A stretch of DNA of 53,976 nt, taken from IMG/VR virus record IMGVR_UViG_3300030333_005911, positions 1 through 53,976 of that record; one strand, given 5' to 3'. Origin of the DNA: a virus (taxonomy: Duplodnaviria > Caudoviricetes). A program made the translations under genes and the position numbers. Every line of letters begins with the position of its first letter. Position 1 is the first letter of the stretch. Positions 35,399 through 50,163 of this stretch are shown here, one piece after another. The notes beneath the pieces are model-generated. The model saw nothing but the letters and a program-made list of their open reading frames with translations. It ran no database searches and was not told the DNA's origin.

Positions 35399-35758
35399 AT
35401 GGTACAGAAAAAATTACAAAAAGGATCTACTTGGGAGGTCGCTGATTTAGATGGGGATGGTGTTATAACTGATGGTGAAATGGCTATGGCTAAAAAGATG
35501 GAAGAACTTGAACATCAAAGAGCTATGCACGAAAATTTAGATAGACAGATGGATCAACAAAGAATGATGGCATGGGTGTCTATGTTATCTTCTATTGTTA
35601 TTATTTTCATTTTACTTACTGACTTTGTTAGCATTATAAGAATGGCACCGATAAGTGGATTTTTAAATACATTTTTAGTCGCTCAAGCAACTATTGTTGT
35701 TGGGTTTATGGGATCTACTGCTTATGTAAAATCAAGGAATGGTAAGAATGGAAGCTAA
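35399..35758 (+). CDS. Two-TM membrane protein with EF-hand-like loop
   Basis: DLDGDGVITDGE plus two hydrophobic helices; AGGAGG RBS. Confidence 0.7.
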   Translation: MVQKKLQKGSTWEVADLDGDGVITDGEMAMAKKMEELEHQRAMHENLDRQMDQQRMMAWVSMLSSIVIIFILLTDFVSIIRMAPISGFLNTFLVAQATIVVGFMGSTAYVKSRNGKNGS

Positions 35759-36142
35759 CTCATCCCAATCTTTGTCCTCCATATTTCCTATTTTATACCA
35801 AGAAGAAATATGAAGTATTTCTTTTAAATTAGGTCTTTTGTAAATAAAATTAGAATGCTCACCTTTTACTAATATTGTATGTGACCTTTGTATTCTTATC
35901 ATTATCCAACTTTTACCACCTCTAGAAACATAGTCTTTTGCCCAGAGAGATTGATTTAGTTTTAGTCCTGTAGAAACACGTTTCTTTGGTAAATAATGAA
36001 TGTATTTTAGTTCTATCCATCCTGTTTTACCATCTTTTATATAAACTATGTCTGGCATGCCTTTCATTACTTTATTTTCTACTCGATACATTTTTATTGG
36101 GAGTTTATTTCTTAACAATATCCAAAAATTTTTTTCACTCAT
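35732..36142 (-). CDS. PD-(D/E)xK nuclease (VRR-NUC / resolvase-like)
   Basis: E..F, GMPDI, WIELK and Q..W motifs; next to SNF2 helicase. Confidence 0.8.
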   Translation of the reverse strand: MSEKNFWILLRNKLPIKMYRVENKVMKGMPDIVYIKDGKTGWIELKYIHYLPKKRVSTGLKLNQSLWAKDYVSRGGKSWIMIRIQRSHTILVKGEHSNFIYKRPNLKEILHISSWYKIGNMEDKDWDELASILTIP

Positions 36143-37832
36143 TATTACTCTCCTGTATAAATAAAGACATTGGATCTTTTGTTATTACATCTGCGATATT
36201 TTTCTTTTCTCTAAGAGCTTGTATAATTTTACTGTCGACAGTTTTTCTAGCTTCTATGTCGATATAAGTAATATTATTTTTTGTTCCTATTCTATGGCAA
36301 CGATCTTCGGATTGCATTCTTTGTTCTAAATCAAAACTATTAGAATAATAAATAGCATAATCAGCAGCAGTTAAAGTTAAACCTGTGCCACCAGATTGTG
36401 GATTACCGATAAAATATTTAATTTTAGGATCATTTTGAAATGCACTTACTGCAGCTTCTCTGTCGTCTGCATTTACTTCTCCATGGTAACTTACAGCTAA
36501 ACTGCCAAGTTCGCTCTCTATGGCTTTTAAATCAGCTTTGAAACGTGCCCATATAATTACTTTAGCATCTATATCACTCAGAATGTCTTTTAAAGCTTGC
36601 ATTCTAGGATTTTTAGCATCAATTGGTTTTATACCTTCTTCACTAGGAAACCAGCCACAAAGTATTTGTTGCATTCTTAATAACCTTGTAACTGCTTCTG
36701 GTGCAGACAATTCTTGACCTTCGAATTCAGCTATAAAAGATTTTTTAATATTATTGTATAATTTTATTTGATTAGCAGTCATCTCAACATAGTATCTTTG
36801 ATAAATTTTATCAGGAAGATCTAAACAATCTTTCTTTAAAACTCTAAAACTGTGACCTTCTATATTTCTTGTTAATTCTTCTAGGTTATTGTAAGAAATT
36901 ACTTGTCTATTTTCAAAACCACCCATAATACAATATCTGGCTCTAAAAGAATAAAAACTGTCATAACCTAGTATTTGAGGATTTAAAAATTTAAATTGTG
37001 CATAAACATCTTCAGCACCTTTAGTGACTGGAGTTCCTGTAAGAATTCTTTTATACTCTGCTGATTTACCAAACTTTGTTATCATTTTAGTTCTTTTTGC
37101 TCCTGGACGTTTAATCCTAGAACTTTCATCTACAACAAGCATAACTCTGCCACTTACTAATATTCTATTGATAAGTTTTACTGCATTAGGACTTACAAAT
37201 GCTTCTACATTGAATGTAAATATTCTTAAATCCATAGAAGCAATAAGAGTATCTTCAAAATTGTCTTTTCTTTTTTGATTCATTCCAGCTGTGTAATAAA
37301 AAGATTTATAAGGACACCAATCTGGTAAATGTGCTTCTATTTCTTTTATCCAGTTTCTATGCACACCATTAGGAGCAATAACAATTAAAGATGTTATTTC
37401 ACCATTTGCATATAAGTATGCAGCATTATCTATAATGACTTTTGTTTTCCCAGTTCCTTGCTCCATTAATAAAGCAAATTCTTTTTTATCTCTACTCATG
37501 TAGAAAGCTTTTCTTTGATGTTCGAAAGGTTTTGTTTTAAATGCATAGTCATCATTAGTTGGCAAAGGTTTTTCTTTAAACTTACGAGTTTCTTCTAAAG
37601 CTTTTAAATTTTCTATGTATTTATTAAGAGCAGGTAATGCATCATCATTCCATTTAGCATTAGGAAAAAATTTATGTATTCTTTCTATATTAGCACCTGT
37701 TGGGTCAAAAAGCAGATCCCGACCAATCCATCTTTTAAATCCTGGAAGAGAGGATAATTTTTCGAAAGTGTCCCCTTCAAGTCTGGATTCAATAATGCAA
37801 TATTTACCGAAATCTGCTCTTCTAATAATCAT
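36135..37832 (-). CDS. SNF2-family helicase
   Basis: MEQGTGKT, VDES, LTGTP, GLTLT, QSEDRCHRIG. Confidence 0.93.
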   Translation of the reverse strand: MIIRRADFGKYCIIESRLEGDTFEKLSSLPGFKRWIGRDLLFDPTGANIERIHKFFPNAKWNDDALPALNKYIENLKALEETRKFKEKPLPTNDDYAFKTKPFEHQRKAFYMSRDKKEFALLMEQGTGKTKVIIDNAAYLYANGEITSLIVIAPNGVHRNWIKEIEAHLPDWCPYKSFYYTAGMNQKRKDNFEDTLIASMDLRIFTFNVEAFVSPNAVKLINRILVSGRVMLVVDESSRIKRPGAKRTKMITKFGKSAEYKRILTGTPVTKGAEDVYAQFKFLNPQILGYDSFYSFRARYCIMGGFENRQVISYNNLEELTRNIEGHSFRVLKKDCLDLPDKIYQRYYVEMTANQIKLYNNIKKSFIAEFEGQELSAPEAVTRLLRMQQILCGWFPSEEGIKPIDAKNPRMQALKDILSDIDAKVIIWARFKADLKAIESELGSLAVSYHGEVNADDREAAVSAFQNDPKIKYFIGNPQSGGTGLTLTAADYAIYYSNSFDLEQRMQSEDRCHRIGTKNNITYIDIEARKTVDSKIIQALREKKNIADVITKDPMSLFIQESNNE

Positions 37833-37834
37833 TT

Positions 37835-38023
37835 TTAATCATCTATAATAAAATCTGCGTTCTTTACGAATGAAGTTTCTTTCCACTTTTGCCAATTTAT
37901 AAAGCTTTTCCAATTTGCATATTCTACAGCATTATTAAACATATATTCAAAGATTGATTCTTTACTTGCTGTATTTTTATTTATGAATCCTCTTGCTAAT
38001 AATTCTTGTGTTATCTTTTTCAT
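37835..38023 (-). CDS. Hypothetical protein
   Basis: 62 aa with AGAAAGGA RBS. Confidence 0.65.
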   Translation of the reverse strand: MKKITQELLARGFINKNTASKESIFEYMFNNAVEYANWKSFINWQKWKETSFVKNADFIIDD

Positions 38024-38025
38024 AA

Positions 38026-38229
38026 TTAATTCCTTTCTAAATTTGTAATCATTTCATCAAAATTACTTGGTCTTTTTAATGGTGGTTTTTCTAAATAAAA
38101 CTCCTCATACTTATATGTTTTAAAACATTTATATCCTTCACCATATATTTTATCAGACCACATCTGACACTCCTGAGGAGTGTCAAAGTGCATAACAGTT
38201 AATAAACTATATAATATAATTTTATTCAT
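38026..38229 (-). CDS. Hypothetical protein with N-terminal hydrophobic segment
   Basis: 67 aa, tightly packed, two Cys. Confidence 0.6.
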   Translation of the reverse strand: MNKIILYSLLTVMHFDTPQECQMWSDKIYGEGYKCFKTYKYEEFYLEKPPLKRPSNFDEMITNLERN

Positions 38230-38724
38230 TTAAGCTACCAACTCAAAATCAAATGTTAATTGCTCATCACATTTACTTGTGAATTGTGGGTTTTCTACTT
38301 CATAAAAATTATGAACTAATCTTTTGCTCCAATGATGAGATGCATCCATTGCTCTCCACTCAGGAACTTGGTTGTCGATTGTTGTCCAATCTCTAGTGTC
38401 CATAACAAGAACATGTCTAGTTATTTGTATAATATAAACTTTTCCTTGCTCTAAATTTTCAGTAACAAATTTGCTAAGTTTTCTTTTCTTATCAAGTTTT
38501 GTCCACTTGCCTTTTACTCCCAACTTTTTACAAGCTGTATGTATATTAGAATTGCTAACACCTTTGCAGTGTCTTTTTCCTCTAATTTTTCTTAGAGTTT
38601 GGTAAGCTGGCTCATATTCTATGCCAGCAACTGTAGCAACTGCGAAAGGTCCACACCATGTAACTCTAGGTATTCCTGTGTCGCAGTATATTATTTGTCT
38701 TGTTTTTGGGTTATGCTTTTCCAT
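38230..38724 (-). CDS. Hypothetical protein, possible C39/papain-like fold
   Basis: WCGPFAVA helix start and later HVLV.D; GGAG RBS. Confidence 0.5.
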   Translation of the reverse strand: MEKHNPKTRQIIYCDTGIPRVTWCGPFAVATVAGIEYEPAYQTLRKIRGKRHCKGVSNSNIHTACKKLGVKGKWTKLDKKRKLSKFVTENLEQGKVYIIQITRHVLVMDTRDWTTIDNQVPEWRAMDASHHWSKRLVHNFYEVENPQFTSKCDEQLTFDFELVA

Positions 38725-38726
38725 AA

Positions 38727-38990
38727 TTATTCTCCCTTACCTATAACAATTTCAAAAGCCTTATCTAATATATTGCTTGGTTCATCATCAGTTTTAAAAC
38801 CAGACTCTTCACCAAAATCGAAACTTGAAGAGAAAGATAATCTTTCTTCATAGCCATATCTTTTTAAAGCTTTTGCTATTATTTTTGGATCTGAAGATAT
38901 AACTGCTATTTTACCAAAACATCTGCTATTTTTTAAATGCCATAGTTCTAACTTACCTTCGTCTGCTGATATGTGTTCAATTTTTCCCAT
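38727..38990 (-). CDS. Hypothetical early protein
   Basis: First gene behind promoter copy A; GAGAAAGGA RBS. Confidence 0.7.
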   Translation of the reverse strand: MGKIEHISADEGKLELWHLKNSRCFGKIAVISSDPKIIAKALKRYGYEERLSFSSSFDFGEESGFKTDDEPSNILDKAFEIVIGKGE

Positions 38991-39097
38991 TTTTTTCCTT
39001 TCTCAACTTTATATAACTAATATAAGCATTTCTGGGCAAATGTAAACCCCAAAATTAAAAATAATTAAAAAAAGATCTGTTTAAAAACAATGATTTA
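38991..39097 (-). promoter_or_regulatory. Repeated sigma70-like promoter module, copy A
   Basis: TAAATCATTGTTTTTAAACAGA box, T-rich tract, GGGG-TTTACA-16 nt-TATATT, RBS GAGAAAGGA. Confidence 0.8.
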
Positions 39098-41908
39098 TGT
39101 GAGCTTACGCCATTTATCTATTTGGAGTTTTCTGAAACCTTTATTTATTCGACCTTTTAATAGATACCAATCTCCTATTCTGCCTTCTTCTACAATAGGT
39201 TTTCCCAGCTTAGGATATTTCCATCGATCTATTCCAGCAAGGATTGGACCAGTATCATCTTCGAATTTCATATTAAGCCACAAGTTGTGTGTCTCTGCTC
39301 TTCTGCCACCTCTTTTAACTAAGTTTACAGCTTCATTTAAATCTCTAAGGTTTTTCTCCATCATTTTTCCGAATACAACAAATTCACCAGGATTATCAGC
39401 TTCTAAGTCTTGTATGTCAGTAATAGGTGTTTTTATTTTATGTGCAGCTGGATCTTTTTTAATATGACCAAATCTTCTCTCGCATTCGAAAATATCATCG
39501 AATGGAGTTTCTCCCTGATCTAAAAGTTTGTCTTGACGAGGTGTTAAAGGTTGTTTAAGTTTTCTTCTTTCTATGATGTCTTCTGCCATTTTTGGACCAA
39601 CACCTTTGATACCTATAAGTCCTCCGATCAACTCACCATCTTGCACAGACCAATTTAATTCTGATCTATATTTATCATAAGGCTTATATCCTAATCCCTC
39701 TCTAACAACTTCTCTTAATAGTTTTACACCTTGATCATCATCTTTAACATTTCTAAGACATGCTGCAGCAAATTCTAAAGGAAATTTACTTTTTAAAACA
39801 CAACACCAATAACTAACAATAGCATAAGCAATTGCATGACTTCTGTTAAATGCCATCGATCCCATTGTGTTAATGTTATCCCAAATTTCTCTTGCTTTCT
39901 TTTCTTCTAAATTATTTTCTAAAGCACCAACTTTAAATCTTTGCCAATACTGATCAAAAAATTCTTCTCCTAAAGATTTGCTCATTGCTCTTCTTAATTG
40001 GTTTACTTCTTCCCATGTTAATTTACCAACTTCTCTAGCAATTGTCATAACTTGTTCTTGATAAACAACTATGCCATATGTAACTTTTGTCACTTCTTTT
40101 ACCATATCATGAATATAATAAACTGGTTCAGCTCCTGTCCTTTTTTTAATAAATTGTGTTGTTCCACCTGATGTTAATGGTCCAGGACGAGCAAGAGCTG
40201 TTATAGAAGCAATATCCTCAAAATTACTTATTTTCATTTGGCGTGTTAAAGATTGCAATGCATAACCTTCAAATTGAAAAATGCCTGCATATCTTTCTTT
40301 ATTTAAAACATCAAAAGCTTCTGGATCTTCTAATGGATAATTTACAAGTTTATCTCTTTCCCATCCTACTTGTTCTAAAACATCATTTAATACAGAAAGT
40401 GTTCTTAATCCTAAAGCATCTATTTTTAATAAATTTAAACTTTCAGCATCTTTTTTATCTATTTGTGCTGCACCAGTTTGTGCACTCACGGAACAATATT
40501 TACTTACTGGATCTTCAGTAACGATAATGCCAGCTGCATGAACACCATTATGCCTAGCGTGATTTTCCATATGCTCTGCTATTCTTATTTGTGGATATTT
40601 TTCTAAAACTTTTTTACCTATTTCTAAATCATTAAATGTATCCATTATGCACATTGCAGCACGAGCATCACCAGAACTTCTTTCTATGATAGCACCTTTT
40701 AGATCATTAACTTCCCATGCAGGTATTCCTAGTTCTTTAGAAACTTCAGTTATTGTGCTTTTAGCTTTATATCTACTCACTGTTCCTAAATGTGCTACTT
40801 TTTCTGCACCATATTTTTGTCTTAAATATTCGAAAACCATTTCTCTTTTGTCGTCTTGAAAATCTATATCTATATCTGGAAGATCAGCACGAGTAACATC
40901 TATAAATCTTTCGAATAATAAATCAAATTTTATAGGATCTATGTCAGTTATTCCTGTTAAATAACAAACTAGAGAGCCAGCACTAGATCCTCTTGCTGGA
41001 CCAACTAACATATGTTGTTTAGCATAATTAATCATATCAGCTATGACGTAAAAATAATCTTCGAAATTTTTACTAGCGATCATATCTATTTCTCTTCTTA
41101 AACGATCACCATAAACTTTATCTTTTAAATCTATTTTTCTCTCTGGTGCACCATCTATACACATTTGTTCTAAAGTTTTTACAGGATCAAAAGAAATCAT
41201 TTGAGCTTGTGGTAATTCAGCATTACATTCATCAGCAATTTGGTAAGTCATTTGTATTGCTTCATCTGGTATCCAAGGAATACAATCAACCAATTCATAT
41301 TCATTTAATAAATGCATTGGCTGAGTTCTTTCTGTTCTATTCATACCAACTAAAACTTCATAAGCTTTTCTGTCTGTAACTTTTGGATAGTAATTGTCTG
41401 AAGTTGCTACAAATTGAAAACGCTTTTCTTTTGCCCAAAGAAAACTCTTTTTACTTGTCATTGGGTTTATCTCAAAATAAATATGCTTCTTTCTAGTTAA
41501 AGGTATTAATCCAAGATTAGGATTAGTTCCTGTTAAAATAATTACATTTTCAGATATTTCAAAAAGATCATAGTAGCTTATTCTCGGTATATAATAAAAA
41601 TTTTCTTTAGATGTGCTTTTAGTTACGAGCTGATAGATCTCTGTTAGACCTGAATTATTTTTTGCTAAGAAAGCCATGTAATTTATTGGCTGTCTTGCTC
41701 TTTCAGTTGCATCTTCTACTACACCTATTTCAACTCCGAATATTGGTTTTTTCTTTTGTTTAATACATTCTTTGTTAAAATTAACATGACCCCAAGTTCC
41801 TGCATCTGCTATTCCTATTGCTTCGCTTGCACAATTTACTACATTTGGAATAGAACCAAAAGCTTTTCTAAAAGAATACTCTGTTCTTGTTCTTAAATGC
41901 AGCATCAT
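39095..41908 (-). CDS. dnaE: DNA polymerase III alpha subunit-like (family C)
   Basis: PHP domain start, GPARGSSAGSLV, catalytic PDIDIDF, HAAG, KIDALGL, YQEQVM, FNRSHA, HhH GIKGVG. Confidence 0.97.
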   Translation of the reverse strand: MMLHLRTRTEYSFRKAFGSIPNVVNCASEAIGIADAGTWGHVNFNKECIKQKKKPIFGVEIGVVEDATERARQPINYMAFLAKNNSGLTEIYQLVTKSTSKENFYYIPRISYYDLFEISENVIILTGTNPNLGLIPLTRKKHIYFEINPMTSKKSFLWAKEKRFQFVATSDNYYPKVTDRKAYEVLVGMNRTERTQPMHLLNEYELVDCIPWIPDEAIQMTYQIADECNAELPQAQMISFDPVKTLEQMCIDGAPERKIDLKDKVYGDRLRREIDMIASKNFEDYFYVIADMINYAKQHMLVGPARGSSAGSLVCYLTGITDIDPIKFDLLFERFIDVTRADLPDIDIDFQDDKREMVFEYLRQKYGAEKVAHLGTVSRYKAKSTITEVSKELGIPAWEVNDLKGAIIERSSGDARAAMCIMDTFNDLEIGKKVLEKYPQIRIAEHMENHARHNGVHAAGIIVTEDPVSKYCSVSAQTGAAQIDKKDAESLNLLKIDALGLRTLSVLNDVLEQVGWERDKLVNYPLEDPEAFDVLNKERYAGIFQFEGYALQSLTRQMKISNFEDIASITALARPGPLTSGGTTQFIKKRTGAEPVYYIHDMVKEVTKVTYGIVVYQEQVMTIAREVGKLTWEEVNQLRRAMSKSLGEEFFDQYWQRFKVGALENNLEEKKAREIWDNINTMGSMAFNRSHAIAYAIVSYWCCVLKSKFPLEFAAACLRNVKDDDQGVKLLREVVREGLGYKPYDKYRSELNWSVQDGELIGGLIGIKGVGPKMAEDIIERRKLKQPLTPRQDKLLDQGETPFDDIFECERRFGHIKKDPAAHKIKTPITDIQDLEADNPGEFVVFGKMMEKNLRDLNEAVNLVKRGGRRAETHNLWLNMKFEDDTGPILAGIDRWKYPKLGKPIVEEGRIGDWYLLKGRINKGFRKLQIDKWRKLT

Positions 41909-42441
41909 ATGTGTCCTTCTTTTTTATACCACTTTAATATCTCCACTGTTGCTTCTACATCAACTAAAGATCTGTGAGCACCTTTATGTTCTTTCCCAGT
42001 TATCTCTTTATATATTTCACTTAATTTACGCATTTTACCCCAAACACTTTGACCAACTTCAACTGAGCAAATATGGTTCATTGGCCAAGGAAATTTTGTA
42101 AGTTTGTCTATTCTCTCTAATTCGAATCTTAAAATCTTCCTATCAAAAGGCAAATTGTGTGCAGCCATCGATGTTTCACCAAGAAAAAATTTACATAAAT
42201 CTTTATAATGATAAATAAAAGGTTTTTTCTCTTTTAAGTCTTCATCTTTTATTCCAGTTATTTTACTAATTTTAGGATCTAGATCGTGTCCAGGATTACA
42301 CATAAATTCTAACCTATCATATTCTTCAAAATTGCCATCGGTAAATCTTATTGCACCGAACTCAATTATTCTAGGTTGTAAATCTAAGTCTGAACCTTCA
42401 GCTTTAGGCAATCCTGTTGTTTCTAAATCAAATACGATCAT
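41905..42441 (-). CDS. DEDDh 3'-5' exonuclease (DnaQ/epsilon-like)
   Basis: DLETTG, AHNLPFD, AHRSLVD; overlaps the dnaE start. Confidence 0.92.
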   Translation of the reverse strand: MIVFDLETTGLPKAEGSDLDLQPRIIEFGAIRFTDGNFEEYDRLEFMCNPGHDLDPKISKITGIKDEDLKEKKPFIYHYKDLCKFFLGETSMAAHNLPFDRKILRFELERIDKLTKFPWPMNHICSVEVGQSVWGKMRKLSEIYKEITGKEHKGAHRSLVDVEATVEILKWYKKEGHI

Positions 42442-42718
42442 CGTCTAAAGACTCCAACATAAAAGCATAAACACCTAAATCATGAATTGAATCTTGATGA
42501 GCTTTTGGCCAGCCTTGACAATATCTTGTTAATTTAGCAACTAACATGTTAATAATACCAAATCTGTTATAATCTTCTACTGTTTTAAGATCAACTCCTT
42601 TGGGGAATAAAGCCATCATTACTCTACCATGATTTAAATAGTTGTCTCCATAATCTTTGTTTCTAGCTTTAAAAGTTTTAAAAGCTTCTTCCATGCAATC
42701 AACTGGGGATCTTTTCAT
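42428..42718 (-). CDS. DUF6378 / nucleotide-modification-associated-like helical protein
   Basis: RNKDYG...KLTRY...HQDSIHDLGVYA pattern. Confidence 0.65.
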   Translation of the reverse strand: MKRSPVDCMEEAFKTFKARNKDYGDNYLNHGRVMMALFPKGVDLKTVEDYNRFGIINMLVAKLTRYCQGWPKAHQDSIHDLGVYAFMLESLDDDRI

Positions 42719-42872
42719 GCTTATGCTCCTTTAGTTTATTTATATCTTCATCATAGTTATTCGCTTTATCAATAAGCTCTCTAAGTTCTTGCATATCTAT
42801 AGCTGTTATATCGAATAATCTAGCTATTTTTTTATCATGCAATTCTATGTCATTTCCTCTTATTCTAAGCAT
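42699..42872 (-). CDS. Hypothetical protein
   Basis: GAGGAG RBS before ATG 42872. Confidence 0.6.
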   Translation of the reverse strand: MLRIRGNDIELHDKKIARLFDITAIDMQELRELIDKANNYDEDINKLKEHKHEKIPS

Positions 42873-42873
42873 G

Positions 42874-43122
42874 TTAATCTCCTCTTGGAGCACAAGTTAC
42901 ATTAATAACAATAGGCACTCTTCCAGAATTGGTTTTAATCATTGTTTTATTTATAATAGATCTTAAACCATTATTTCTACAATCATTTATTGCATTAATA
43001 ACTTCTTCTCTGTCCATCTGATAAATTTCTTTATGATGAACTATTTCTACTTTTTCTTTGCTTGAGCAACCTATTAACATAAAAAGTGCGAATAGCAAAA
43101 GTAATGCTACAGTGTATTTCAT
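42874..43122 (-). CDS. Putative lipoprotein
   Basis: Signal peptide MKYTVALLLLFALFMLIG-C with lipobox. Confidence 0.7.
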   Translation of the reverse strand: MKYTVALLLLFALFMLIGCSSKEKVEIVHHKEIYQMDREEVINAINDCRNNGLRSIINKTMIKTNSGRVPIVINVTCAPRGD

Positions 43123-43145
43123 TTTGTTCCTTTCTCATTTAAAAT

Positions 43146-43439
43146 TTATTTCTTTTTGTAAAATATTCCTAAAATTTTCTTTATTCTTTGCCAGATAGTT
43201 AATTTAATGTCTTGTTCATGAAAGCTTTCTACAACAGCATCTGGTTGTAAAAATTTATCAACTTTTGACGCAAGCTTCGCACCAGATATTTTTGATGGTT
43301 TTCTTTTATTAATTATATATCTAACAGTTCTTCTTTTAACACCCATTTCTTCTGCTATTTGATCTCTGTCACCTTTATATTTTTTATTTAAATGGTGTAC
43401 AACGTCAACAAAATCTTGGTCATATTTTTTTCTAAACAT
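43146..43439 (-). CDS. HTH DNA-binding protein
   Basis: RDQIAEEMGVKRRTVRYII helix-turn-helix. Confidence 0.7.
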   Translation of the reverse strand: MFRKKYDQDFVDVVHHLNKKYKGDRDQIAEEMGVKRRTVRYIINKRKPSKISGAKLASKVDKFLQPDAVVESFHEQDIKLTIWQRIKKILGIFYKKK

Positions 43440-43448
43440 ATTCTGCTC

Positions 43449-44108
43449 CTAATTAAAAGGTTTTAAAGTTCCAATGATTGGTTGATCCAATTCTGTTATC
43501 TCTTCACACACTTCTCTTAATTGTATCATTAATATTCTTAATTTATTTCTCCAAATATTATGCACAATTTCTTCATCTAGTGCAACTTTTACCATAGTAC
43601 TATCTATGTACTCTATAACTTCTTTGGCTTGTTGTAAAAGTTTTTTATTTCCAAGTAAAATTGTTTCATCCCAAAGTTTATAAACAACAGATGCAAGATC
43701 TGATATTTTTACAATAATACCTTCTTTGTCTTTTTTAGCATCAGTCCAATTTTTTAGAATTATATTCGGATCCATTCCTAGTTCGTTTATTACATTATTA
43801 ATACCAGCAGTTGATATCTTATCGAATACTTCTTTTGACTCTTTATTATAGTATTTAGTTGGTCTCGGAATATCTCCTGTAATTATTTCATCTATATCGT
43901 GTACAACAGACTTTTGCAAAACTTTACAAACATCTATTTTTTCACCATCTTCTATCAAACTATTTAAATATTCACTTAATAAAAAACCAAAGAAACAAAC
44001 GAAACCTGTGTGTTCCATAACTGATTCATCTTTTACCAAATGAAGTTGCGAGTATCTCCTAACAGAACAAAGTCTTTGAGACATATTAAAAACTTTTATA
44101 ACATCCAT
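43449..44108 (-). CDS. HD-domain deoxynucleotide phosphohydrolase (YfbR/DatZ/Dmp-like)
   Basis: RRY...ESVMEH, HDIDEIITGDIPRPTK, KISD motifs. Confidence 0.88.
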   Translation of the reverse strand: MDVIKVFNMSQRLCSVRRYSQLHLVKDESVMEHTGFVCFFGFLLSEYLNSLIEDGEKIDVCKVLQKSVVHDIDEIITGDIPRPTKYYNKESKEVFDKISTAGINNVINELGMDPNIILKNWTDAKKDKEGIIVKISDLASVVYKLWDETILLGNKKLLQQAKEVIEYIDSTMVKVALDEEIVHNIWRNKLRILMIQLREVCEEITELDQPIIGTLKPFN

Positions 44109-44296
44109 TATATTTCCTTTCCTTCCTTTCTCAAACTGTCAACATAATTTACCAATTCTTTTCTAGCCCTATTGTAATCATTTTGAATATCGTTATGATT
44201 AGGACTATCATATAAGTCTTTTTGTAAATAGTCTAATCTTTTTCTTAAATAATTAAGAAAATATTCTTGAAATGGTGTTAATTTATTATTCGACAT
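44108..44296 (-). CDS. Hypothetical protein
   Basis: 62 aa helical hairpin, coupled to neighbours. Confidence 0.65.
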   Translation of the reverse strand: MSNNKLTPFQEYFLNYLRKRLDYLQKDLYDSPNHNDIQNDYNRARKELVNYVDSLRKEGKEI

Positions 44297-44852
44297 CAGG
44301 ATTAAAATTTTGAAATTGCTCTAGAATTTTTTGCCTGCGACCCATATGATCCTGCCAATCTATTCCATCTTTAACAGCAGGTGGTAAATCACCAGTTTTT
44401 TCCCAATAAGATGAGATTAATCCAGCAAACTTAATAAGATCACCTACTCCTACAACATGAGCATCAACACTTTCTTTAAGCATAATATTAAGACCAAAAT
44501 TTTCATTTGTATAAGTAATAGAATATCTTTTGTGTTCAGCTGCACTCTTTTCGTTTTTATATTTAAAATGATCAGCTAATGCTTTAAAATATCCCATTTC
44601 ATAAACAGTCCCAGTATCTCTACCATCTACAACTGCAAATAAAATATTAGCATTAATCATTTCTTCTACATTTTTATCGTATATCCTTTTAGACTCTTTG
44701 AGCCTATCCTCTGGGGAAAGATGAGCAATTACACCTCCACTTTTTCTAGGTGAGAAATAATTTAAATTATGTTTATCAAATTCATCCTCTATCCTAGATA
44801 TAGTTTCATTTTGCTTATCATTAAAAAATGGTCCAGCTAAATATATTCTCAT
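44286..44852 (-). CDS. Nucleoside 2-deoxyribosyltransferase / N-glycosidase-fold protein
   Basis: IYLAGPFF, FSP, DTGTVYEMGY (catalytic Glu), NIML; GGAGGT RBS and ATGA overlap with the upstream gene. Confidence 0.88.
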   Translation of the reverse strand: MRIYLAGPFFNDKQNETISRIEDEFDKHNLNYFSPRKSGGVIAHLSPEDRLKESKRIYDKNVEEMINANILFAVVDGRDTGTVYEMGYFKALADHFKYKNEKSAAEHKRYSITYTNENFGLNIMLKESVDAHVVGVGDLIKFAGLISSYWEKTGDLPPAVKDGIDWQDHMGRRQKILEQFQNFNPDVE

Positions 44853-45925
44853 TGTATTACCTCCACATTGTTTATATGTTTTTTCCAAAAATTAGGTCTA
44901 TAGCTTGCTTCTATATTTACCATAGGCATATATTTTTTGTCTATAGGCATTGATGCTAAATTGCTATGAATTGGGCAAGGTGCTCCAGGATCATTGTCGG
45001 TGTGTCTTAATTCAGCATCTCTTGTATAAGGACAAAAGCCTTTATTACATGGTAAATCTTTTTCACTAATATCAATGTATTTTTGTGCAGCAACAATAAT
45101 CTCTTTCCAGATGCCATATTGTGCAATCCAACATTGTCTTTTGTTAATAACAGTTTTCCAAAATTCTGTTTCTGCTGCAATGTTAATATTTATTTTATGA
45201 CCTAAAGTTGTAAACCAATTTCTCTTTTTTATTATGGACATTAGATTATCTTTAATTGTAAAGTTTCTATGCCTTACAACTTGTGCTCTTAATGCAATTG
45301 TCATATTTAAAAATACATTTATGATTGGTCCAATTCTTCCAGTTTGCATCTCGTTTGTTCTAACTTCAGGAATAGGATTAACAAAGCTATAATTCTTAGC
45401 ATATTTTTCTAGCTGAAATTTATTATTAAGTTCATTTTTACCAATAATAAAATATTCATCTATTTGTGATAAGTATTCGTAAAGTTTATATATTTTTATT
45501 AAACCTCTCCAGGACAATCTGGTTGTAAAAGATGTTAAAGAACAAACAGGCATATGCATTCTGTACTCATCTTGTATAATATTATTACTTATGTCCTTTT
45601 TAATTTTATCTTTAAGAAAATTTTTAGCATCTACATGATCAGGAATATTATTAAAATACTTCGGTATTTCAAAATTCTCAGGAGCATCAACTCTAGATGT
45701 TCTTGCCCACATTACATGATCTCTAAAAGATGCAAATATTTCTCTTTCTAATATTGTACATTCAATAGATAAAACAACTGATGGTATTTCATTAACAGGA
45801 GCATCTATCGATAAAATAGTGTCTAAAGGTGTAGTGTCATCAGGAGTTCTAGAAAGTTCCCAAGCAATCCTAGACAAATTCTTTTTACCAACATTGGTAT
45901 TGCTACTGATTATTGTTATTTTCAT
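44849..45925 (-). CDS. Divergent two-domain ThyX-like flavin-dependent protein
   Basis: N-half FRDHVMWARTSR and YRMHMP...T...SWR.L; C-half AQVVRHR, RQCWIAQ and PC..G.CP, all resembling ThyX motifs. Confidence 0.6.
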   Translation of the reverse strand: MKITIISSNTNVGKKNLSRIAWELSRTPDDTTPLDTILSIDAPVNEIPSVVLSIECTILEREIFASFRDHVMWARTSRVDAPENFEIPKYFNNIPDHVDAKNFLKDKIKKDISNNIIQDEYRMHMPVCSLTSFTTRLSWRGLIKIYKLYEYLSQIDEYFIIGKNELNNKFQLEKYAKNYSFVNPIPEVRTNEMQTGRIGPIINVFLNMTIALRAQVVRHRNFTIKDNLMSIIKKRNWFTTLGHKININIAAETEFWKTVINKRQCWIAQYGIWKEIIVAAQKYIDISEKDLPCNKGFCPYTRDAELRHTDNDPGAPCPIHSNLASMPIDKKYMPMVNIEASYRPNFWKKHINNVEVIQ

Positions 45926-46208
45926 TTTTAGATTTCCAATATTTATCTAGTTTCCAAACTCTTACATCAGGTGTCGCTTTACCATCTACATCTCTTATTG
46001 CTCTAGATTTACATTCGAAACCCAGCTTTTTACAAGTAGATCTAAAGGAGCATACATCTCCTGAAGTTTTTAAAACTGTACTATCACCTACTTCCATAGC
46101 ATTAACAAGTCTAAACCATCTGTCTTTAGATTTTGCAGGATCAAGCATCACGGGTATGCCACTTTCAATGACATACCCATCAAATTGTCTTTTAACAATT
46201 TTAGACAT
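45903..46208 (-). CDS. Hypothetical protein, possible small DNA-binding fold
   Basis: IESGIP, MEVGDS and VRVW pattern. Confidence 0.6.
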   Translation of the reverse strand: MSKIVKRQFDGYVIESGIPVMLDPAKSKDRWFRLVNAMEVGDSTVLKTSGDVCSFRSTCKKLGFECKSRAIRDVDGKATPDVRVWKLDKYWKSKNENNNNQ

Positions 46209-46764
46209 CGTAAACCTCTGCCCATCCTTTTTTGATATCCCACTTAAGATCTTCTAAACGACCACCAGATTTAATATAAAGTTCATAAGGCATATCAGCA
46301 CCATGCTTTAAAAGTAAATTGAAAGAAGCATAACCACAAACTTCTTTATTATTCTCTTTACGAGGATTTTTGTCAACAAGAATTCTAATCATCTTGCCAG
46401 CAAACTGACCACGTGGTTTAGAAACTTTTTGTCCAGATGTAGGAACTTTTTCTTTGTATAGTTCCATTTCATCAGTTGTCATACCTCTTGAATCCCAAAT
46501 AGTTTTTGTAAGTGGTGTTAAAAGATTAATAAGAGTAAATAATCTTTTAACACCAGTTTTTCTATCAGCAAATCTTTTAACTTTCTTTTTAGATACTTTG
46601 TTGAAAGCATCTAAAACTTTATTAGTTGTCATATTAGGATTTTCTAAAAGCTCATCAGCATTTTCAAATACTGCCATGCCATTGCCTGTTTGTCTAGCAG
46701 CAAATCTGCTAACATAAGCATTAACATTAAGACTTTTCAAATCAATTGTAAAAACTTTATTCAT
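46201..46764 (-). CDS. Basic early protein
   Basis: First gene behind promoter copy B; KRFADRKTG and NPR...GG...DLKWD..KG motifs. Confidence 0.7.
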   Translation of the reverse strand: MNKVFTIDLKSLNVNAYVSRFAARQTGNGMAVFENADELLENPNMTTNKVLDAFNKVSKKKVKRFADRKTGVKRLFTLINLLTPLTKTIWDSRGMTTDEMELYKEKVPTSGQKVSKPRGQFAGKMIRILVDKNPRKENNKEVCGYASFNLLLKHGADMPYELYIKSGGRLEDLKWDIKKGWAEVYDV

Positions 46765-46874
46765 ATTAAATTTCCTTTCTCAGTTATAAATAAGATTATA
46801 ATCATTTTTTCACAAATGTAAACCCCAAAATTAAAAATAATCATATTTTCTTCTCCTTTGAAAACAATAACTTA
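46765..46874 (-). promoter_or_regulatory. Repeated promoter module, copy B
   Basis: TAAGTTATTGTTTTCAAA box; GGGG-TTTACA-16 nt-TATAAT; RBS GAGAAAGGA; 46813-46841 identical to 39037-39065. Confidence 0.82.
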
Positions 46875-46878
46875 TAAA

Positions 46879-48345
46879 TTATATAGAAAAAAACTTTAAT
46901 CCTCTTGGTCTAACAAGGTACAAATTTTGCTTTGCACGAGTCAATGCAACATACCAAACTCTATTTTCTTCATCCTTTCCTAAACTCTCCCAACTTAGTC
47001 TTCCCATATCTGTTAATAATACAACATTATCAGCTTCACCACCTTTACTTTGATGAATTGTAGAGATGTTAATTCTAGGTTTAGAATTAAATTTTTCTCC
47101 GTTCCTCATGCAAGACCTTAAATATTCTCTTTCGTCTGGTGCTATTTTTTTTAAAATCTGCATCCAGTCTCTATGAATAGCTTCTCTGGGGAGAGAAAGA
47201 TGTTCTATATTGTAACTTTCTCGTTTATCCAACTTCACTTTAAAAGTAAAGAAATTTATTAAGTTTTTTGCATCAGGCATTGATATTGGCTGATCTTTTC
47301 TAATTTTTTCCCAAGATGTTATTGCTTTAGTTTCATCACTTTCTAAAGAGCTTTTACCATTATAATTATATGCATATCCTTGTTGCCTTACAGATCTTTT
47401 TAATCTGTTCAATAAATATTTACTTCTAGACATGCAAAGCCAGCTTTCATCTCCTTTAAAATTAACTTGCTGCTCATCAGCAATATATTCTACATTTCCT
47501 TTTTCAGTTCTAGGACTCCAAGGTTTTATATATCTATTTTTTATTCTTTTAACAACATCACTTGCTAGTTGATGAACTTTCATAGGTATTCTGAAAGATT
47601 GTGGAAGTATTTTTTTGTCACCTTTTAAATTTAAAAATTTATTCACATCAGCTCCTGCCCAGCCAAAAATAGCTTGATCATCGTCACCTGCTATATAAAC
47701 TTCAGAAGCTTCAGCTGATGCCTTTATTGCCATTCGATATTGCAAAGAACTTAAATCTTGTGCTTCATCAATTATGCATATTTCTACTGGCAAAGGAGAA
47801 GTGTATTTTTCCAGCATGTCTGTAAAATCTAAAAGACCATTTTGTTTTTTGTAAATTCTAAGACTTTCAGCATATTGTTTTGCTGCATGTAAAGTCAAGT
47901 CCATTTGATTACTTAAATAATATTGTTTATCTATTGAACGAAGACCAACTCTCGCCAAAGACTCTAGTCTTGAACATTTATCACCCAGACCATCTCCAAT
48001 ATGTATTCCCAAATCTTCATCATAAATACCTCTAAATTCTATTCCTAAAGCTTTGCCAATATTTCTGTAATGCATATTGGTCATAACTTCATCTCTTTGC
48101 AAACCTAGTCTTTTAAATGCAAGAGAATGTAAAGTTCTAAAAAAAGGAAAACGATCAGCATCAAAACCAAATTGAACCATAGCTCTTTCCTGAGCTTCAT
48201 TTGCAGCTTTTCTTGTAAAAGCAAGGTAAGCAATTTTTTCTGGTTGCACACCTCTTTTAAGACTAGCTTCAACAATATTAAGTAAAGTTGTCGTCTTCCC
48301 TGTTCCTGGAGGACCCAAAATTATTTGCACATGTCTCAAAATCAT
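46879..48345 (-). CDS. UvrD/Rep-like SF1 helicase
   Basis: GPPGTGKT, DEAQD, GDDDQAIF, QSFR, TIHQSKGGE, YVALTRA. Confidence 0.95.
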   Translation of the reverse strand: MILRHVQIILGPPGTGKTTTLLNIVEASLKRGVQPEKIAYLAFTRKAANEAQERAMVQFGFDADRFPFFRTLHSLAFKRLGLQRDEVMTNMHYRNIGKALGIEFRGIYDEDLGIHIGDGLGDKCSRLESLARVGLRSIDKQYYLSNQMDLTLHAAKQYAESLRIYKKQNGLLDFTDMLEKYTSPLPVEICIIDEAQDLSSLQYRMAIKASAEASEVYIAGDDDQAIFGWAGADVNKFLNLKGDKKILPQSFRIPMKVHQLASDVVKRIKNRYIKPWSPRTEKGNVEYIADEQQVNFKGDESWLCMSRSKYLLNRLKRSVRQQGYAYNYNGKSSLESDETKAITSWEKIRKDQPISMPDAKNLINFFTFKVKLDKRESYNIEHLSLPREAIHRDWMQILKKIAPDEREYLRSCMRNGEKFNSKPRINISTIHQSKGGEADNVVLLTDMGRLSWESLGKDEENRVWYVALTRAKQNLYLVRPRGLKFFSI

Positions 48346-48457
48346 TCCTTTCTAAATCTTCTTTAAATCTTCTTTTTATGTAATCATAATAAGATTCATA
48401 GCAATAATGATCTTCACCTTCGATTATTTCTTTAAAACATTTAGGGCATATTATCAT
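48278..48457 (-). CDS. Possible 59-aa Zn-finger-like protein (not in ORF track)
   Basis: MIICPKC...HYC; ATGA overlap with upstream ORF; 3' end overlaps the UvrD start. Confidence 0.5.
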   Translation of the reverse strand: MIICPKCFKEIIEGEDHYCYESYYDYIKRRFKEDLERNDFETCANNFGSSRNREDDNFT

Positions 48458-48615
48458 TTGTACTCACCTTTAAATTCTTTTGCTTTTTGGTAAACTAACA
48501 CAAAAGCATTACAATTATTACAAGATAAATTTGTTACAATATCGTATTCCTCATTTTCTTCTTCAACATGATCACCACCCCAAATTAATTTCTCTTTACA
48601 TACATAACATTTCAT
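48454..48615 (-). CDS. 53-aa zinc-ribbon protein (not in ORF track)
   Basis: MKCYVC..LIWGGDH...NLSCNNC; TAATG coupling to the primase gene. Confidence 0.75.
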   Translation of the reverse strand: MKCYVCKEKLIWGGDHVEEENEEYDIVTNLSCNNCNAFVLVYQKAKEFKGEYK

Positions 48616-50144
48616 TAAAAGTCCTCCGTAACTTCACTAGGTATATCAAGTGCATCCTCTTCATCAAAAAATTCAGGCTCAGGCACTGACCATACTTTAA
48701 CTGGTTTGCTTTTAATTCTAAAGGTTTTTCTATCACCACCTAAAGATCTAAGCCAAGACCAAACTTGATGTTGACTTGGATATTTAAATCTTCTAGCATC
48801 TAAATATATAAATAAATCTTCTGATCTAAAATAAACTCTGCCTTCCTCAGAATCATGCCATGGTTTACTATTCATTATTTCATCTCTTTGTCTAGCTTGT
48901 ACTTTTCCAGTTAAAAAGCTGTCTAAAACTTTTTCAAATTGTCCCTGAGGAGAAGCATCATCTGGATCTATTACAACTTCAACACTTTGCAAAAGCTCAT
49001 TAATTCTTTTCTCCCATCTTTGAGCTGGCATGGTGCTAGGGCATTTGTTAAGTTTTTCTACACATATTTTTTGTAATTGTCTCTGGTCAAGTAATTGAGG
49101 TGTTGTTACCTCTATTCTTTCACCTTGCATTTCTATGTACCAGCGAACTGATTGTCTATTTTCAGTTTCGTACTTTGTAATGGCATCAACTTCTAAAGCT
49201 AAACCACCACCAAAACCTCCAACTCCATAACTTCTTTTCATACATTTAGATTTCTCACAATAATTACATATTGGTGCTTGTTTACAAGTATAAGCATAAT
49301 CTTTTCTACTTACAGATTTTATAAGTCCATTTACTTCAGAAGATGGCAAAGGTTCATCAAGATTTTCATAATTGAATTTCATAAGATCTTCTTGCCAATC
49401 GTCTGGGTTCTTTTTTCTATAATAAACACCGACATTAAAAAGAGAACTATTTCTGCTTCCTTCTGGGAAACCCATTGTCATAATATGCTGAAGGCAAGGT
49501 GGACCATCACTAAAATTATCAACTAAATTAAATTCTAGTTTTTCTAATTTTTCATAAGTTGTTCTTTTCTTTTCTGCTAATTTTATAAAATCTTCTACAT
49601 TTAATTTTTTGCCTTTATGTATTGCATATCTTTCTGTTTTATCACCATTGTGATAACATATATTAATCCAGTTTCCACGATCTCTGTCGTTTGCTCTAGA
49701 TATTTGTTTAGGAAATATTTCTGAACCACCATAACCTAGTTGTGCAGCAAATTCATTCAGCTTAGATACCATATCAATTGCAGGAATGCTAGGATTGCAA
49801 AACATGTACAAATGAGCACCACCACTTTTAGAGCGACAAAGAACCAATGGCAGTTCTCTAATTTTCTTTTCAAGACTTTCCAATGTTTCATTTAATTTCG
49901 CTTCACCTCTAATATCAACATCTATAACTCCAAAATAACAACTGTTGTCCATAAGTAAAGGAATGATTCCTAGTATGTATTCACCACCATTTAAATGTTC
50001 TTTAAAATTTTTCTCTGTAACAGGTTCACTAACTGTTACTGCTCGCCCTGACATTTTTCCGTCAGCTTCTTTTTTATTTACTCTGTATTGACCATGTGCA
50101 AGTTCATAACCTTGAAAAAGCTCCATGAATTTATTGACTGCCAT
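48615..50144 (-). CDS. Archaeo-eukaryotic-type primase with PriCT-like domain
   Basis: IDVD, SKSGGAH, INI motifs; PPC..G.RN PriCT-like segment; Cys cluster. Confidence 0.8.
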   Translation of the reverse strand: MAVNKFMELFQGYELAHGQYRVNKKEADGKMSGRAVTVSEPVTEKNFKEHLNGGEYILGIIPLLMDNSCYFGVIDVDIRGEAKLNETLESLEKKIRELPLVLCRSKSGGAHLYMFCNPSIPAIDMVSKLNEFAAQLGYGGSEIFPKQISRANDRDRGNWINICYHNGDKTERYAIHKGKKLNVEDFIKLAEKKRTTYEKLEKLEFNLVDNFSDGPPCLQHIMTMGFPEGSRNSSLFNVGVYYRKKNPDDWQEDLMKFNYENLDEPLPSSEVNGLIKSVSRKDYAYTCKQAPICNYCEKSKCMKRSYGVGGFGGGLALEVDAITKYETENRQSVRWYIEMQGERIEVTTPQLLDQRQLQKICVEKLNKCPSTMPAQRWEKRINELLQSVEVVIDPDDASPQGQFEKVLDSFLTGKVQARQRDEIMNSKPWHDSEEGRVYFRSEDLFIYLDARRFKYPSQHQVWSWLRSLGGDRKTFRIKSKPVKVWSVPEPEFFDEEDALDIPSEVTEDF

Positions 50145-50163
50145 ATTAAATCCTTTCTAAAGT

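Follow-up and report, generated by a model that had tools for sequence, protein, structure and literature searches.

The 54-kb phage genome analyzed here (the window, that is, the whole virus record IMGVR_UViG_3300030333_005911 of 53,976 bp, 99% complete according to CheckV) carries a three-gene block in the position that is occupied in sister phages by canonical ThyX, the flavin-dependent thymidylate synthase (FDTS). The block encodes an HD-domain 5'-deoxynucleotidase (the HD protein), a divergent ThyX-fold protein (ThyXL), and a protein with the fold of nucleoside 2'-deoxyribosyltransferases (NDT). The three genes are linked in an all-or-none manner, they are exchanged exclusively for canonical ThyX, and their families recur in cultured phages with hypermodified thymidine. 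We estimate a probability of about 0.55 that window 43440–46398 is a thymidylate-replacement cassette, in which a small C5-modified deoxyuridine monophosphate (dUMP) would be made while thymidine monophosphate (dTMP) is drained. The block and its three genes are as follows.

43440..46398: swapped block (the one part of the replication arm that has no DNA homology to the sister contig L148)
43449..44108, − strand: HD-domain YfbR-type 5'-deoxynucleotidase, 219 aa (PF12917, 5.8e-22)
44286..44852, − strand: NDT-like nucleoside 2'-deoxyribosyltransferase-fold protein, 188 aa (PF05014, 3e-15)
44849..45925, − strand: ThyXL, divergent ThyX-fold protein, 358 aa (AlphaFold2 and Foldseek; relatives matching Thy1), with ThyX-like half-units at residues ~45–155 and 196–285 and a C-terminal extension containing C265, C293, C298, and C317

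The limits of the block were defined by blastn against L148. The flanks are 82–95% identical (L148 36–4065 to window 50199–46399, and L148 6288–7275 to window 43439–42465), whereas no alignment was obtained between both flanks, where L148 holds a HAD phosphatase (HAD_PNKP), a 310-aa protein, and a canonical ThyX in place of window 43440–46398. The exchanged unit is the 3-kb block, because DNA homology is present on both sides of 43440–46398 and none is present across it.

An alignment scan of IMG/VR with ThyXL identified 68 loci, in which the identity to ThyXL ranged from 31 to 90%. The genes for the HD protein, ThyXL, and NDT all lie within at most 3.3 kb in 65 of these 68 loci, and the remaining three loci are cut by the contig end at or beside ThyXL. 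The gene orders were ThyXL-NDT-HD (37 loci), HD-ThyXL-NDT (25 loci), and ThyXL-HD-NDT (3 loci). This grouping is far beyond chance for the trio, but not for the flanking genes, which encode a DnaE polymerase, an exonuclease, and a DUF6378-like protein. An earlier annotation made from the sequence of the window (the first-pass annotation) had grouped four genes, for the ThyX-like, NDT, HD, and DUF6378-like proteins, with dnaE. The linkage of the ThyX-like, NDT, and HD genes was borne out, whereas the DUF6378-like gene and DnaE lie outside the unit. The absence of co-occurrence in relatives, which that annotation had named as evidence against its idea, was not observed for the trio, as the counts above indicate.

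Other genes beside the trio are inconstant: a ligase or an HNH endonuclease is found there occasionally, and one locus has a HAD hydrolase together with a CMP-sugar cytidylyltransferase. In the latter locus (L055, a 53.6-kb IMG/VR contig), the two genes lie between ThyXL and NDT at 11119–12473 (CTP_transf_3, 1.2e-43), an arrangement that may point to sugar chemistry accompanying the trio in this lineage.

A scan based on DnaE gave 79 loci, 34 of which have at least 6.9 kb upstream of DnaE. The trio was present or absent as a whole: all three genes were found in 8 of the 34 loci and none of them in 26, and for the subset with a DnaE at least 70% identical (n = 28) the numbers were 8 and 20, respectively. 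All of the 26 trio-less loci carry a canonical ThyX and the 310-aa protein in the slot, with Thy1 scores of 131–134 bits for three ThyX examples. Across 140 loci and the window, ThyXL occurs without canonical ThyX in 78, canonical ThyX without ThyXL in 41, neither in 22 (mostly short contigs), and both in 0. The NDT and HD profiles are also matched in 75 of the 78 ThyXL-positive loci, the other three being the contig-end cases; the 78 include 8 loci that repeat contigs already counted, and L149 and L167 are one contig. These results support the idea that the HD protein, ThyXL, and NDT form one functional unit, which is a tight, mobile, all-or-none cassette. In sister phages, this cassette is exchanged one-for-one with canonical ThyX. 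In a search of the literature (open papers, supplements aside), we found no description of the trio, of the reduced form that it takes in marine phages, or of a swap between it and canonical ThyX, nor of ThyX-type modification enzymes.

The 310-aa protein (L148 4699–5631) was found in 38 of the 41 canonical-ThyX loci, the three loci without it being short, and never with the trio. It has no Pfam match; its language-model neighbours and one weak NAD_binding_8 match suggest a FAD/NAD(P) oxidoreductase, which may be a dedicated redox partner of the phage ThyX.

For ThyXL, the sequence itself gave no match in Pfam, PHROG, NCBIfam, or the PDB sequences, and no match to Thy1 (PF02511) at E ≤ 0.1 as a single sequence or at E ≤ 1 in a six-frame search. 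Among its relatives, 31 of 41 match Pfam Thy1 at E ≤ 1 (best 1.8e-8), and the ThyXL profile gave marginal matches to PDB sequences (E 0.03–0.15). The AlphaFold2 model, based on an alignment of the 41 relatives, has a predicted local distance difference test score (pLDDT) of 94.3. In a Foldseek search of the model against the PDB, all 30 rows among the matches listed were ThyX/FDTS structures or the ThyX-like methylase PolB; the best match, 4fzb, had an E value of 3.5e-4 and a probability of 1.00, with TMt values of 0.61–0.67 over ~200 of the 358 residues. The model therefore has the ThyX fold, and the sequence stays below the Thy1 gathering threshold.

The Thy1-like pieces of ThyXL are not collinear with ThyX. 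In the PDB profile search, residues ~88–149 match the C-terminal half of T. maritima ThyX and the RHR piece is at ~197–226, and in the YerA41 homologue Thy1 model positions 125–188 precede positions 52–82. In addition, the beta-alpha-beta ... beta-alpha pattern occurs twice in the predicted secondary structure. Because the Thy1 pieces are out of order and the secondary structure is repeated, these predictions indicate that ThyXL consists of two ThyX-like half-units and a C-terminal extension, in agreement with the two-domain ThyX-like protein of the first-pass annotation. When the N-terminal and C-terminal halves of the ThyXL alignment were compared by hhalign, no significant similarity was obtained (E 0.43), and the repeat is thus not statistically confirmed.

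Canonical ThyX enzymes carry the motif RHR-x7-S. This motif is not contiguous in ThyXL: the RHR element is at 218–220, the residue at position +8 is Leu, and a T76-S77-R78 element and R68 fall in the first half-unit. The ThyX active-site motif therefore appears to be split over both half-units, with the RHR element in one and the S/T-x-R element in the other. In the first unit, we take R68 to correspond to R80 of T. maritima ThyX, T76-S77-R78 to S88-G89-R90, D119 to E144, R122 to R147, and R140 to R165; in the second unit, R218-H219-R220 is kept and R263 presumably corresponds to R174. The offset to the T. maritima residue numbers was taken from the PDB profile alignment. R61, R68, R78, Q118, D119, T131, R140, R218, and R263 are kept even in the homologues of SP-15, Carin-5, and the Vibrio phages, and across the homologues T76 is replaced only by Ser and R122 only by Lys. 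The persistence of these ThyX-like Arg, Thr, and Ser residues in such distant phages was counted in favor of the thymidylate-replacement reading as a sign of catalytic competence, together with the YfbR-aligned residues kept by the HD protein and the DxGTxxExG glutamate kept by NDT; the homodimer model described next was counted in favor as well.

A model of two ThyXL copies with FAD gave a median score of 0.87, compared to 0.01 for the best control; in the calibration, 20 of 30 proteins whose structures are pairs of one chain attained this mark, as did 1 of 23 whose structures are single chains. The contacts of the predicted homodimer agree by at least 92% between runs, the pLDDT of the partner is at least 86, and the predicted interface takes in residues 68–76 and 218–225, which are conserved motifs.

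C265, C293, C298, and C317 are invariant in the marine ThyXL set; phiXF1 and Carin-5 have them as well, whereas YerA41 and the Vibrio phages lack them. This distribution suggests a lineage-specific structural metal site. An essential Fe-S centre was also considered for the four cysteines and was dropped because they are missing from the YerA41 and Vibrio homologues.

At E ≤ 1e-3, 1e-10, and 1e-30, the ThyXL family numbers 551, 329, and 197 representative clusters, respectively, out of 1.84 billion. No ThyXL relative was detected when 185,579 species genomes were scanned with a pattern, a result that is limited by the pattern and is not proof of absence.

The HD protein matches the YfbR-like family PF12917 with 78.7 bits, compared to a cut-off of 25.9. 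As a single sequence, it aligns with E. coli YfbR at 1.1e-8 and with DatZ (6zpa) at E 0.79, and with the family profile the E values are 7.7e-21 (77.7 bits) for YfbR and 6.6e-5 (25.6 bits) for DatZ. R18, H33, H70, D71, E74, D79, and D137 are invariant in 30 sequences of the family. The YfbR residues R18, H33, H68/D69, E72, D77, and D137, which we take to be the ligands of the metal and of the deoxynucleoside monophosphate (dNMP), align to these invariant residues. The protein is not an equivalog of YfbR in the NCBIfam sense (NF003009, 53.2 bits compared to a cut-off of 122). Judging from these similarities, the HD protein is best called a 5'-deoxynucleotidase rather than a dNTP triphosphohydrolase; of its initial description as YfbR/DatZ-like, the YfbR part is retained and the DatZ part is not. 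The PHROG label "dATP triphosphohydrolase" was not adopted, since the similarity to DatZ is marginal.

For NDT, the true start is the ATG at 44852. An ATGA overlap, with GGAGG upstream, joins the ThyXL stop and the NDT start and was read directly from the sequence, so that the coupling noted in the first-pass annotation holds and NDT would be translationally coupled to ThyXL. The NDT fold is supported by both the Pfam match (56.8 bits to Nuc_deoxyrib_tr, compared to a cut-off of 28.8) and Foldseek. All 25 sequences compared have Y4, D79, G81, T82, and E85, and at least 90% have N122; the DxGTxxExG glutamate (the catalytic nucleophile) and the N-terminal Tyr, which have counterparts in the L. 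leichmannii enzyme, are thus kept. The AlphaFold2 model (pLDDT 86.8) is closest to the nucleoside NDTs 7o62 (7.1e-7) and 6evs (1.7e-6), with TMt values of 0.75–0.78, and the dNMP hydrolases DNPH1 and MilB rank lower (~1e-4), a rank that is not specificity. A nucleotidase yielding deoxynucleosides and a nucleoside transferase would be a natural pair.

The trio families were also found, by tblastn and profile searches, in Bacillus phage SP-15, Yersinia phage YerA41, Cobetia phage Carin-5, and Xanthomonas phage phiXF1. The ThyXL profile matched phiXF1 at 4.8e-122, YerA41 at 4.6e-82, Carin-5 at 3.6e-35, and SP-15 gp130 at 4e-30; the corresponding values for the HD profile were 1.7e-60, 9e-37, 3.8e-36, and 6e-49, and the NDT profile scored 72–104 bits in the four phages. 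In phiXF1, ThyXL adjoins NDT and the HD gene lies 8 kb upstream; the phiXF1 paper has nothing on DNA modification. In vB_Yru_GN1, a relative of YerA41, only ThyXL and NDT were seen. The control, Vibrio phage VA-RY-3, which has the closest DnaE of an isolate (45%), has none of the three families and a canonical Thy1 (131.9 bits). This canonical-scoring thymidylate synthase (L072 6318–7028) reads RNR instead of RHR.

SP-15, YerA41, and Carin-5 are reported to contain thymidine with a C5-linked pentyl-type linker and sugars, which replaces about half of the T in SP-15 and most of it in YerA41 (PMC13697223, PMC12686479, PMC5977210). All three of the sequenced phages with proven thymidine hypermodification of the SP-15 type thus have all three families. 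SP-15 has a canonical ThyX, gp9 (Thy1), in addition to gp130, and in Carin-5 ThyXL is accompanied by a ThyA-type gene (231 bits), so ThyXL is not redundant with the ordinary synthases of these two phages; in YerA41, only the ThyXL homologue and no further thymidylate synthase was found. In 2018, gp130 was guessed to be a hydroxymethyl-dUMP synthase and was said to have no homologues (PMC5977210). By sequence, gp130 belongs to the ThyXL family, which has at least 197 representative clusters at E ≤ 1e-30. SP-15 gene 127 (L003 4917–5867) encodes an NDT protein with two tandem NDT-like domains, the second of which is without the DxGTxxExG glutamate context in the alignment.

The large Vibrio phages 150E35-1, 1.031.O, and Va2 (L091, L092, and L093) carry a ThyXL homologue (81–87 bits) directly followed by an NDT homologue (122–126 bits). 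In 150E35-1 and 1.031.O, an HD protein (193–208 bits) is encoded directly upstream of ThyXL, and the genes after ThyXL-NDT encode a MazG pyrophosphohydrolase, a cytidylyltransferase-like protein, and a DXD glycosyltransferase; an acyl-carrier-like protein is also annotated nearby in 1.031.O. In Va2, the open reading frame (ORF) upstream of ThyXL has no HD profile match at E ≤ 10, and the genes after ThyXL-NDT encode a dUTPase, a TPP-binding protein, and a ribonucleotide reductase.

The ORFs that flank the cassette and the two small ORFs inside the block are listed below.

39095..41908, − strand: DnaE-type DNA polymerase III alpha, flanking (DNA_pol3_alpha 5.6e-69, finger 3.2e-41, PHP 1.7e-12)
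41905..42441, − strand: DEDDh exonuclease, flanking (RNase_T PF00929, 1.6e-23)
42428..42718, − strand: DUF6378-like protein, 96 aa, flanking (16.2 bits)
44108..44296, − strand: 62-aa ORF between NDT and HD, possibly not a gene; not conserved
45903..46208, − strand: 101-aa ORF inside the swapped block, in closer relatives only

The first-pass annotation had joined DnaE, the exonuclease, and the DUF6378-like protein to the ThyX-like, NDT, and HD genes in a six-gene cassette with a private polymerase. All six ORFs were recovered in one − strand run, and the DnaE and exonuclease calls are above the Pfam cut-offs. The DUF6378 (PF19905) call is weak for the window protein itself, which is below the gathering threshold (cut-off 27.1); 13 of 23 relatives match at E ≤ 1 (best 6.2e-6). 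DnaE is 73–86% identical in 20 sister loci with canonical ThyX and no trio, and the exonuclease is 94% identical in the trio-less L148. The DUF6378-like gene is present in canonical-ThyX sister contigs, gp09 of roseophage CRP-901 is annotated as such, and its profile matched none of five phage records (four trio-bearing isolates and VA-RY-3). These comparisons indicate that the genes for DnaE, the exonuclease, and the DUF6378-like protein, together with the small ORFs interspersed among them, are ordinary shared genes of the replisome arm and not part of the cassette, which reduces the proposed six-gene unit to the trio with one or two small ORFs. The polymerase is not private to the cassette, because sister contigs with canonical ThyX share it. 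On these grounds, neither the view of DnaE as a selective polymerase nor that of the DUF6378-like protein as the MazG analogue in the cassette was kept. The Z-genome-style frame of synthase, dNTPase, MazG, and selective polymerase does not fit either, as the HD protein is of the YfbR type, DnaE is shared, and the DUF6378-like gene is outside the cassette.

The 62-aa ORF has no tblastn match in 71 loci, including those with a 90% identical ThyXL, and no family match. The 101-aa ORF has tblastn matches of 59–70% in many loci with a ThyXL at least 60% identical and none in distant loci; it has no Pfam, NCBIfam, or PADLOC match. In sister contigs, a short-chain dehydrogenase (adh_short, 4.3e-32) and a 175-aa ORF lie between the DUF6378-like gene and the exonuclease (L148 7276–8466, compared to window 42443–42464); this pair is not in the window and was found in several distant trio-bearing loci. 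An 82-aa ORF at 42874–43122 (− strand), within the replication arm, has a lipoprotein-like N-terminus and a weak Rz-like spanin match (E 0.0043), and is 93% conserved in L148.

The window has a GC content of ~33% (range 29–38%), and no tRNA genes were found in it. The structural arm (+ strand, ~0.2–35.3 kb) includes the terminase, the capsid protein, and, just upstream of the capsid region at 9549–9965, a Cpn10/GroES-like co-chaperonin ORF (5.1e-14); the replication arm (− strand) spans ~35.7–52.2 kb. The large terminase shares 75.7% identity with its counterparts in Roseobacter phages CRP-901 and CRP-902. The replication module of CRP-901 differs, with a primase-polymerase, a DUF6378 protein, a methyltransferase, and no DnaE, and neither CRP-901 nor CRP-902 was among the matches for ThyXL, DnaE, or NDT. 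The genome is thus a mosaic of a CRP-901/CRP-902-like arm (1–35300) and an arm (35700–52250) unlike their replication module. Three consecutive ORFs at 50225–51966 (− strand) belong to the Pfam families of cyanophage Pam3 gp34, gp33, and gp32 (4.4e-54, 2.6e-23, and 5.1e-17, respectively), and the gp34-like gene also adjoins the trio in several distant loci. The phage stretch was found in the contigs of 20 shotgun metagenome runs from 13 studies, and no native long reads were found for it.

Because of the linkage of the trio, its exchange with ThyX, and its presence in all three hypermodified phages, two of which have an ordinary synthase as well, the most economical view is that the nucleotide placed at T positions comes from ThyXL but is something other than dTMP, while the HD protein and NDT drain dTMP and thymidine (dT). 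From this, we infer the substrates, the product, and a modification in the DNA of the window phage. In this scheme, ThyXL, as a dimer of internally duplicated ThyX-like chains, would act on the C5 of dUMP and yield a thymidylate substitute, most simply 5-hydroxymethyl-dUMP or another dUMP with a small C5 group, which host kinases and the ordinary phage DnaE would place in the DNA. The YfbR-type HD enzyme would convert dTMP to thymidine, and the NDT-like enzyme would cleave thymidine or swap its base, so that canonical thymidine is not recycled. In larger phages (SP-15, YerA41, Carin-5, and some Vibrio phages), sugar, acyl-carrier, and reductase genes would join this core to give bulky hypermodification. 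For the window phage, 5-hydroxymethyldeoxyuridine is our guess as the simplest candidate. We would give somewhat less than even odds to a fuller version, in which the trio is a self-sufficient minimal thymidine-replacing pathway with a ThyX-derived flavoenzyme yielding a dUMP with a non-methyl C5 substituent, and whose nucleotidase and deoxyribosyltransferase turn the dTMP pool into thymine, with a new base possibly swapped onto the freed deoxyribose. Any modification in the window phage must be small and polymerase-friendly, because there are no sugar or reductase genes among the scanned ORFs, shotgun assembly is normal, and a nearly identical DnaE works beside canonical ThyX.

Several observations weigh against the thymidylate-replacement reading. 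General and targeted scans found no kinase, dUTPase, or glycosyltransferase. In a six-frame search of the phage record, no PurZ/PurA, ThyA, canonical Thy1, thymidylate kinase, deoxynucleoside kinase, or dUTPase was detected; PurZ/adenylosuccinate synthetase (PF00709) gave no match at E ≤ 1, with a control search positive in 14 of 14 genomes. The first-pass annotation had thus correctly described the phage as lacking PurZ and a nucleotide kinase. No sugar-activating or glycosyltransferase genes are among the 40 window ORFs scanned with Pfam, the remaining tail-region ORFs being outside the scan. Furthermore, the DnaE that works beside either cassette argues against a modification that needs a special polymerase, and the normal assembly means that any modification cannot be one that blocks polymerases, as has been reported for YerA41, RP13, and Carin-5. 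The canonical-ThyX cassette also carries a phosphatase (HAD_PNKP), so a phosphatase beside a thymidylate synthase is not in itself a sign of dTMP destruction, and the homodimer result for ThyXL may reflect memory of the solved ThyX tetramers. Finally, the swap with canonical ThyX equally fits functional equivalence, namely plain dTMP synthesis.

The latter possibility, which we regard as less likely but serious, is that ThyXL is a divergent but normal flavin-dependent dTMP synthase, that the HD protein and NDT serve deoxynucleoside salvage or rebalancing, and that the DNA is canonical. Salvage would proceed from dNMP to deoxynucleoside and then by base exchange towards dT or dA, feeding the AT-rich genome. 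As expected for functional equivalents, the trio occupies the exact canonical-ThyX slot, the two never occur together in this lineage, and nearly identical replisome genes serve both cassettes; the normal sequencing and assembly, the lack of detected kinase or transferase genes for a new nucleotide, the low GC content, and the nearest structures of the NDT model, which are true nucleoside transferases of salvage, are also in line with it. On the other hand, SP-15 and Carin-5 have a canonical synthase besides ThyXL, and the trio is present in every sequenced phage with proven SP-15-type hypermodification. In addition, ThyXL is so far from ThyX that Thy1 missed it, its family is small (551 representative clusters at the loosest threshold), and a dNMP nucleotidase that is strictly inherited together with a dTMP synthase would seem to work against plain dTMP supply. 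It is improbable, in our view, that the trio leaves the DNA unchanged and instead targets the nucleotide pools of the host or nucleotides of signalling or defence, with ThyXL a non-synthase, for example by countering dNTP-depleting or nucleotide-based defences or by starving host replication. The cassette is accessory and mobile, occurring in three gene orders and in phages with unrelated polymerases, and the HD protein has a weak, sub-threshold similarity to the anti-Pycsar protein Apyc1 (E 0.0065, 16.4 bits compared to a cut-off of 50). However, PADLOC models at E ≤ 0.01 gave no match in ten proteins except two trivial HTH-level matches on a 97-aa ORF, and the exclusive exchange with canonical ThyX points to thymidylate metabolism; the conserved ThyX-like substrate-binding arginines of ThyXL and the YfbR dNMP-binding residues of the HD protein also count against this reading. 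A non-canonical base, as first proposed, is plausible, with independent comparative support from the trio families in SP-15, YerA41, and Carin-5 and from the canonical-ThyX slot, whereas the Z-genome and selective-polymerase analogy on which it was based is not retained.

For the enzymes that start SP-15-type thymidine hypermodification, the gp130 guess is the sole proposal in the literature consulted (PMC5977210). The trio occurs in stripped-down form in small marine phages and offers a three-gene target for biochemistry and, with the near-isogenic sisters carrying canonical ThyX, a built-in control pair for sequencing native DNA of marine viromes. If the fuller, self-sufficient version of the thymidylate-replacement reading is correct, a modified DNA pyrimidine would for the first time be traced to a flavin-dependent enzyme, and ThyXL would account for the missing first step in the hypermodification of SP-15, YerA41, and Carin-5. 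A recurrent marine lineage (the 13 studies above) would then have DNA whose modified T appears as plain T in short-read metagenomics, and would coexist with sisters that differ only by the canonical-ThyX cassette. If the product is a thymine substitute, part of marine viral DNA would be chemically unlike its sequence data, with effects on restriction and defence evasion and on thymidine-based assays. If ThyXL instead makes plain dTMP, the exchange would still be a clear non-orthologous cassette displacement of thymidylate synthesis.

Compared to SP-15, YerA41, and Carin-5, the window phage has the same families (SP-15 gp130, the gp127 NDT, and an HD protein; YerA41 gp081 and gp086; and the Carin-5 homologues), which are contiguous in the window and scattered in SP-15 and Carin-5. 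These phages have genomes of 145–222 kb, whereas that of the window phage is 54 kb. They are reported to have PolA-UDG polymerases (PMC13697223) and dCMP or dCTP deaminase, dUTPase, and sugar/glycosyltransferase clusters (PMC12686479, PMC13697223), and the DNA of YerA41 and Carin-5 blocks standard sequencing (PMC12686479, PMC13697223). The window phage, in contrast, has DnaE as its polymerase, no dUTPase was found in it, no sugar/glycosyltransferase genes were found among its scanned ORFs, and its DNA assembles normally.

ThyXL shares with canonical ThyX (the T. maritima, PBCV-1, and M. tuberculosis structures) the fold, the RHR element, the aligned arginines, and the genomic slot, and its active-site motifs are at the predicted subunit interface, as in canonical ThyX. 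It differs in its length (358 aa compared to ~215), in the non-collinear Thy1 pieces without a match to the Thy1 hidden Markov model, in the location of RHR and S/T-x-R in different half-units, and in its extra C-terminal domain. Furthermore, ThyXL is always linked to the HD protein and NDT, whereas the canonical ThyX of sister phages is linked to the 310-aa putative FAD/NAD(P) protein. The HD protein resembles E. coli YfbR in its fold and aligned invariant residues, but falls below the equivalog cut-off, and its similarity to DatZ of Z-genome phages is only marginal.

Phage-induced dTMP nucleotidases are classical in phages with 5-hydroxymethyluracil (hmU) or hypermodified T, and hmU phages usually bring a dNMP kinase. 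In such phages (SPO1, ViI, M6, and PhiW-14), a ThyA-derived dUMP hydroxymethylase carries out a pre-replicative C5 change on dUMP (PMC8989533, PMC5889632). The pathway proposed here is similar in that a thymidylate-synthase relative would change the C5 of dUMP before replication. It differs in that those phages use the ThyA fold, usually with a dNMP kinase and a 5-hmdU DNA kinase, whereas the fold here is that of ThyX and no ThyA or kinase was found.

DmtZ of PurZ0 Z-genome phages is an NDT-family dAMP hydrolase and deoxyribose-5-phosphate transferase that destroys dAMP and makes dZMP by a base swap (PMC12884076). Whereas DmtZ pairs with PurZ0 and DutZ and has DNPH1 and MilB as its nearest structures (PMC12884076), the window NDT pairs with a ThyX-like protein and a YfbR-like nucleotidase, without PurZ, and its model ranks nucleoside transferases first, with DNPH1 and MilB at ~1e-4. 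The catalytic Tyr and Glu are conserved in both, and DmtZ is likewise a phage NDT-superfamily enzyme whose pathway eliminates a canonical nucleotide and provides its replacement. It is a direct, tested precedent for the base exchange suggested in the first-pass annotation (PMC12884076) and was counted in favor of the thymidylate-replacement reading.

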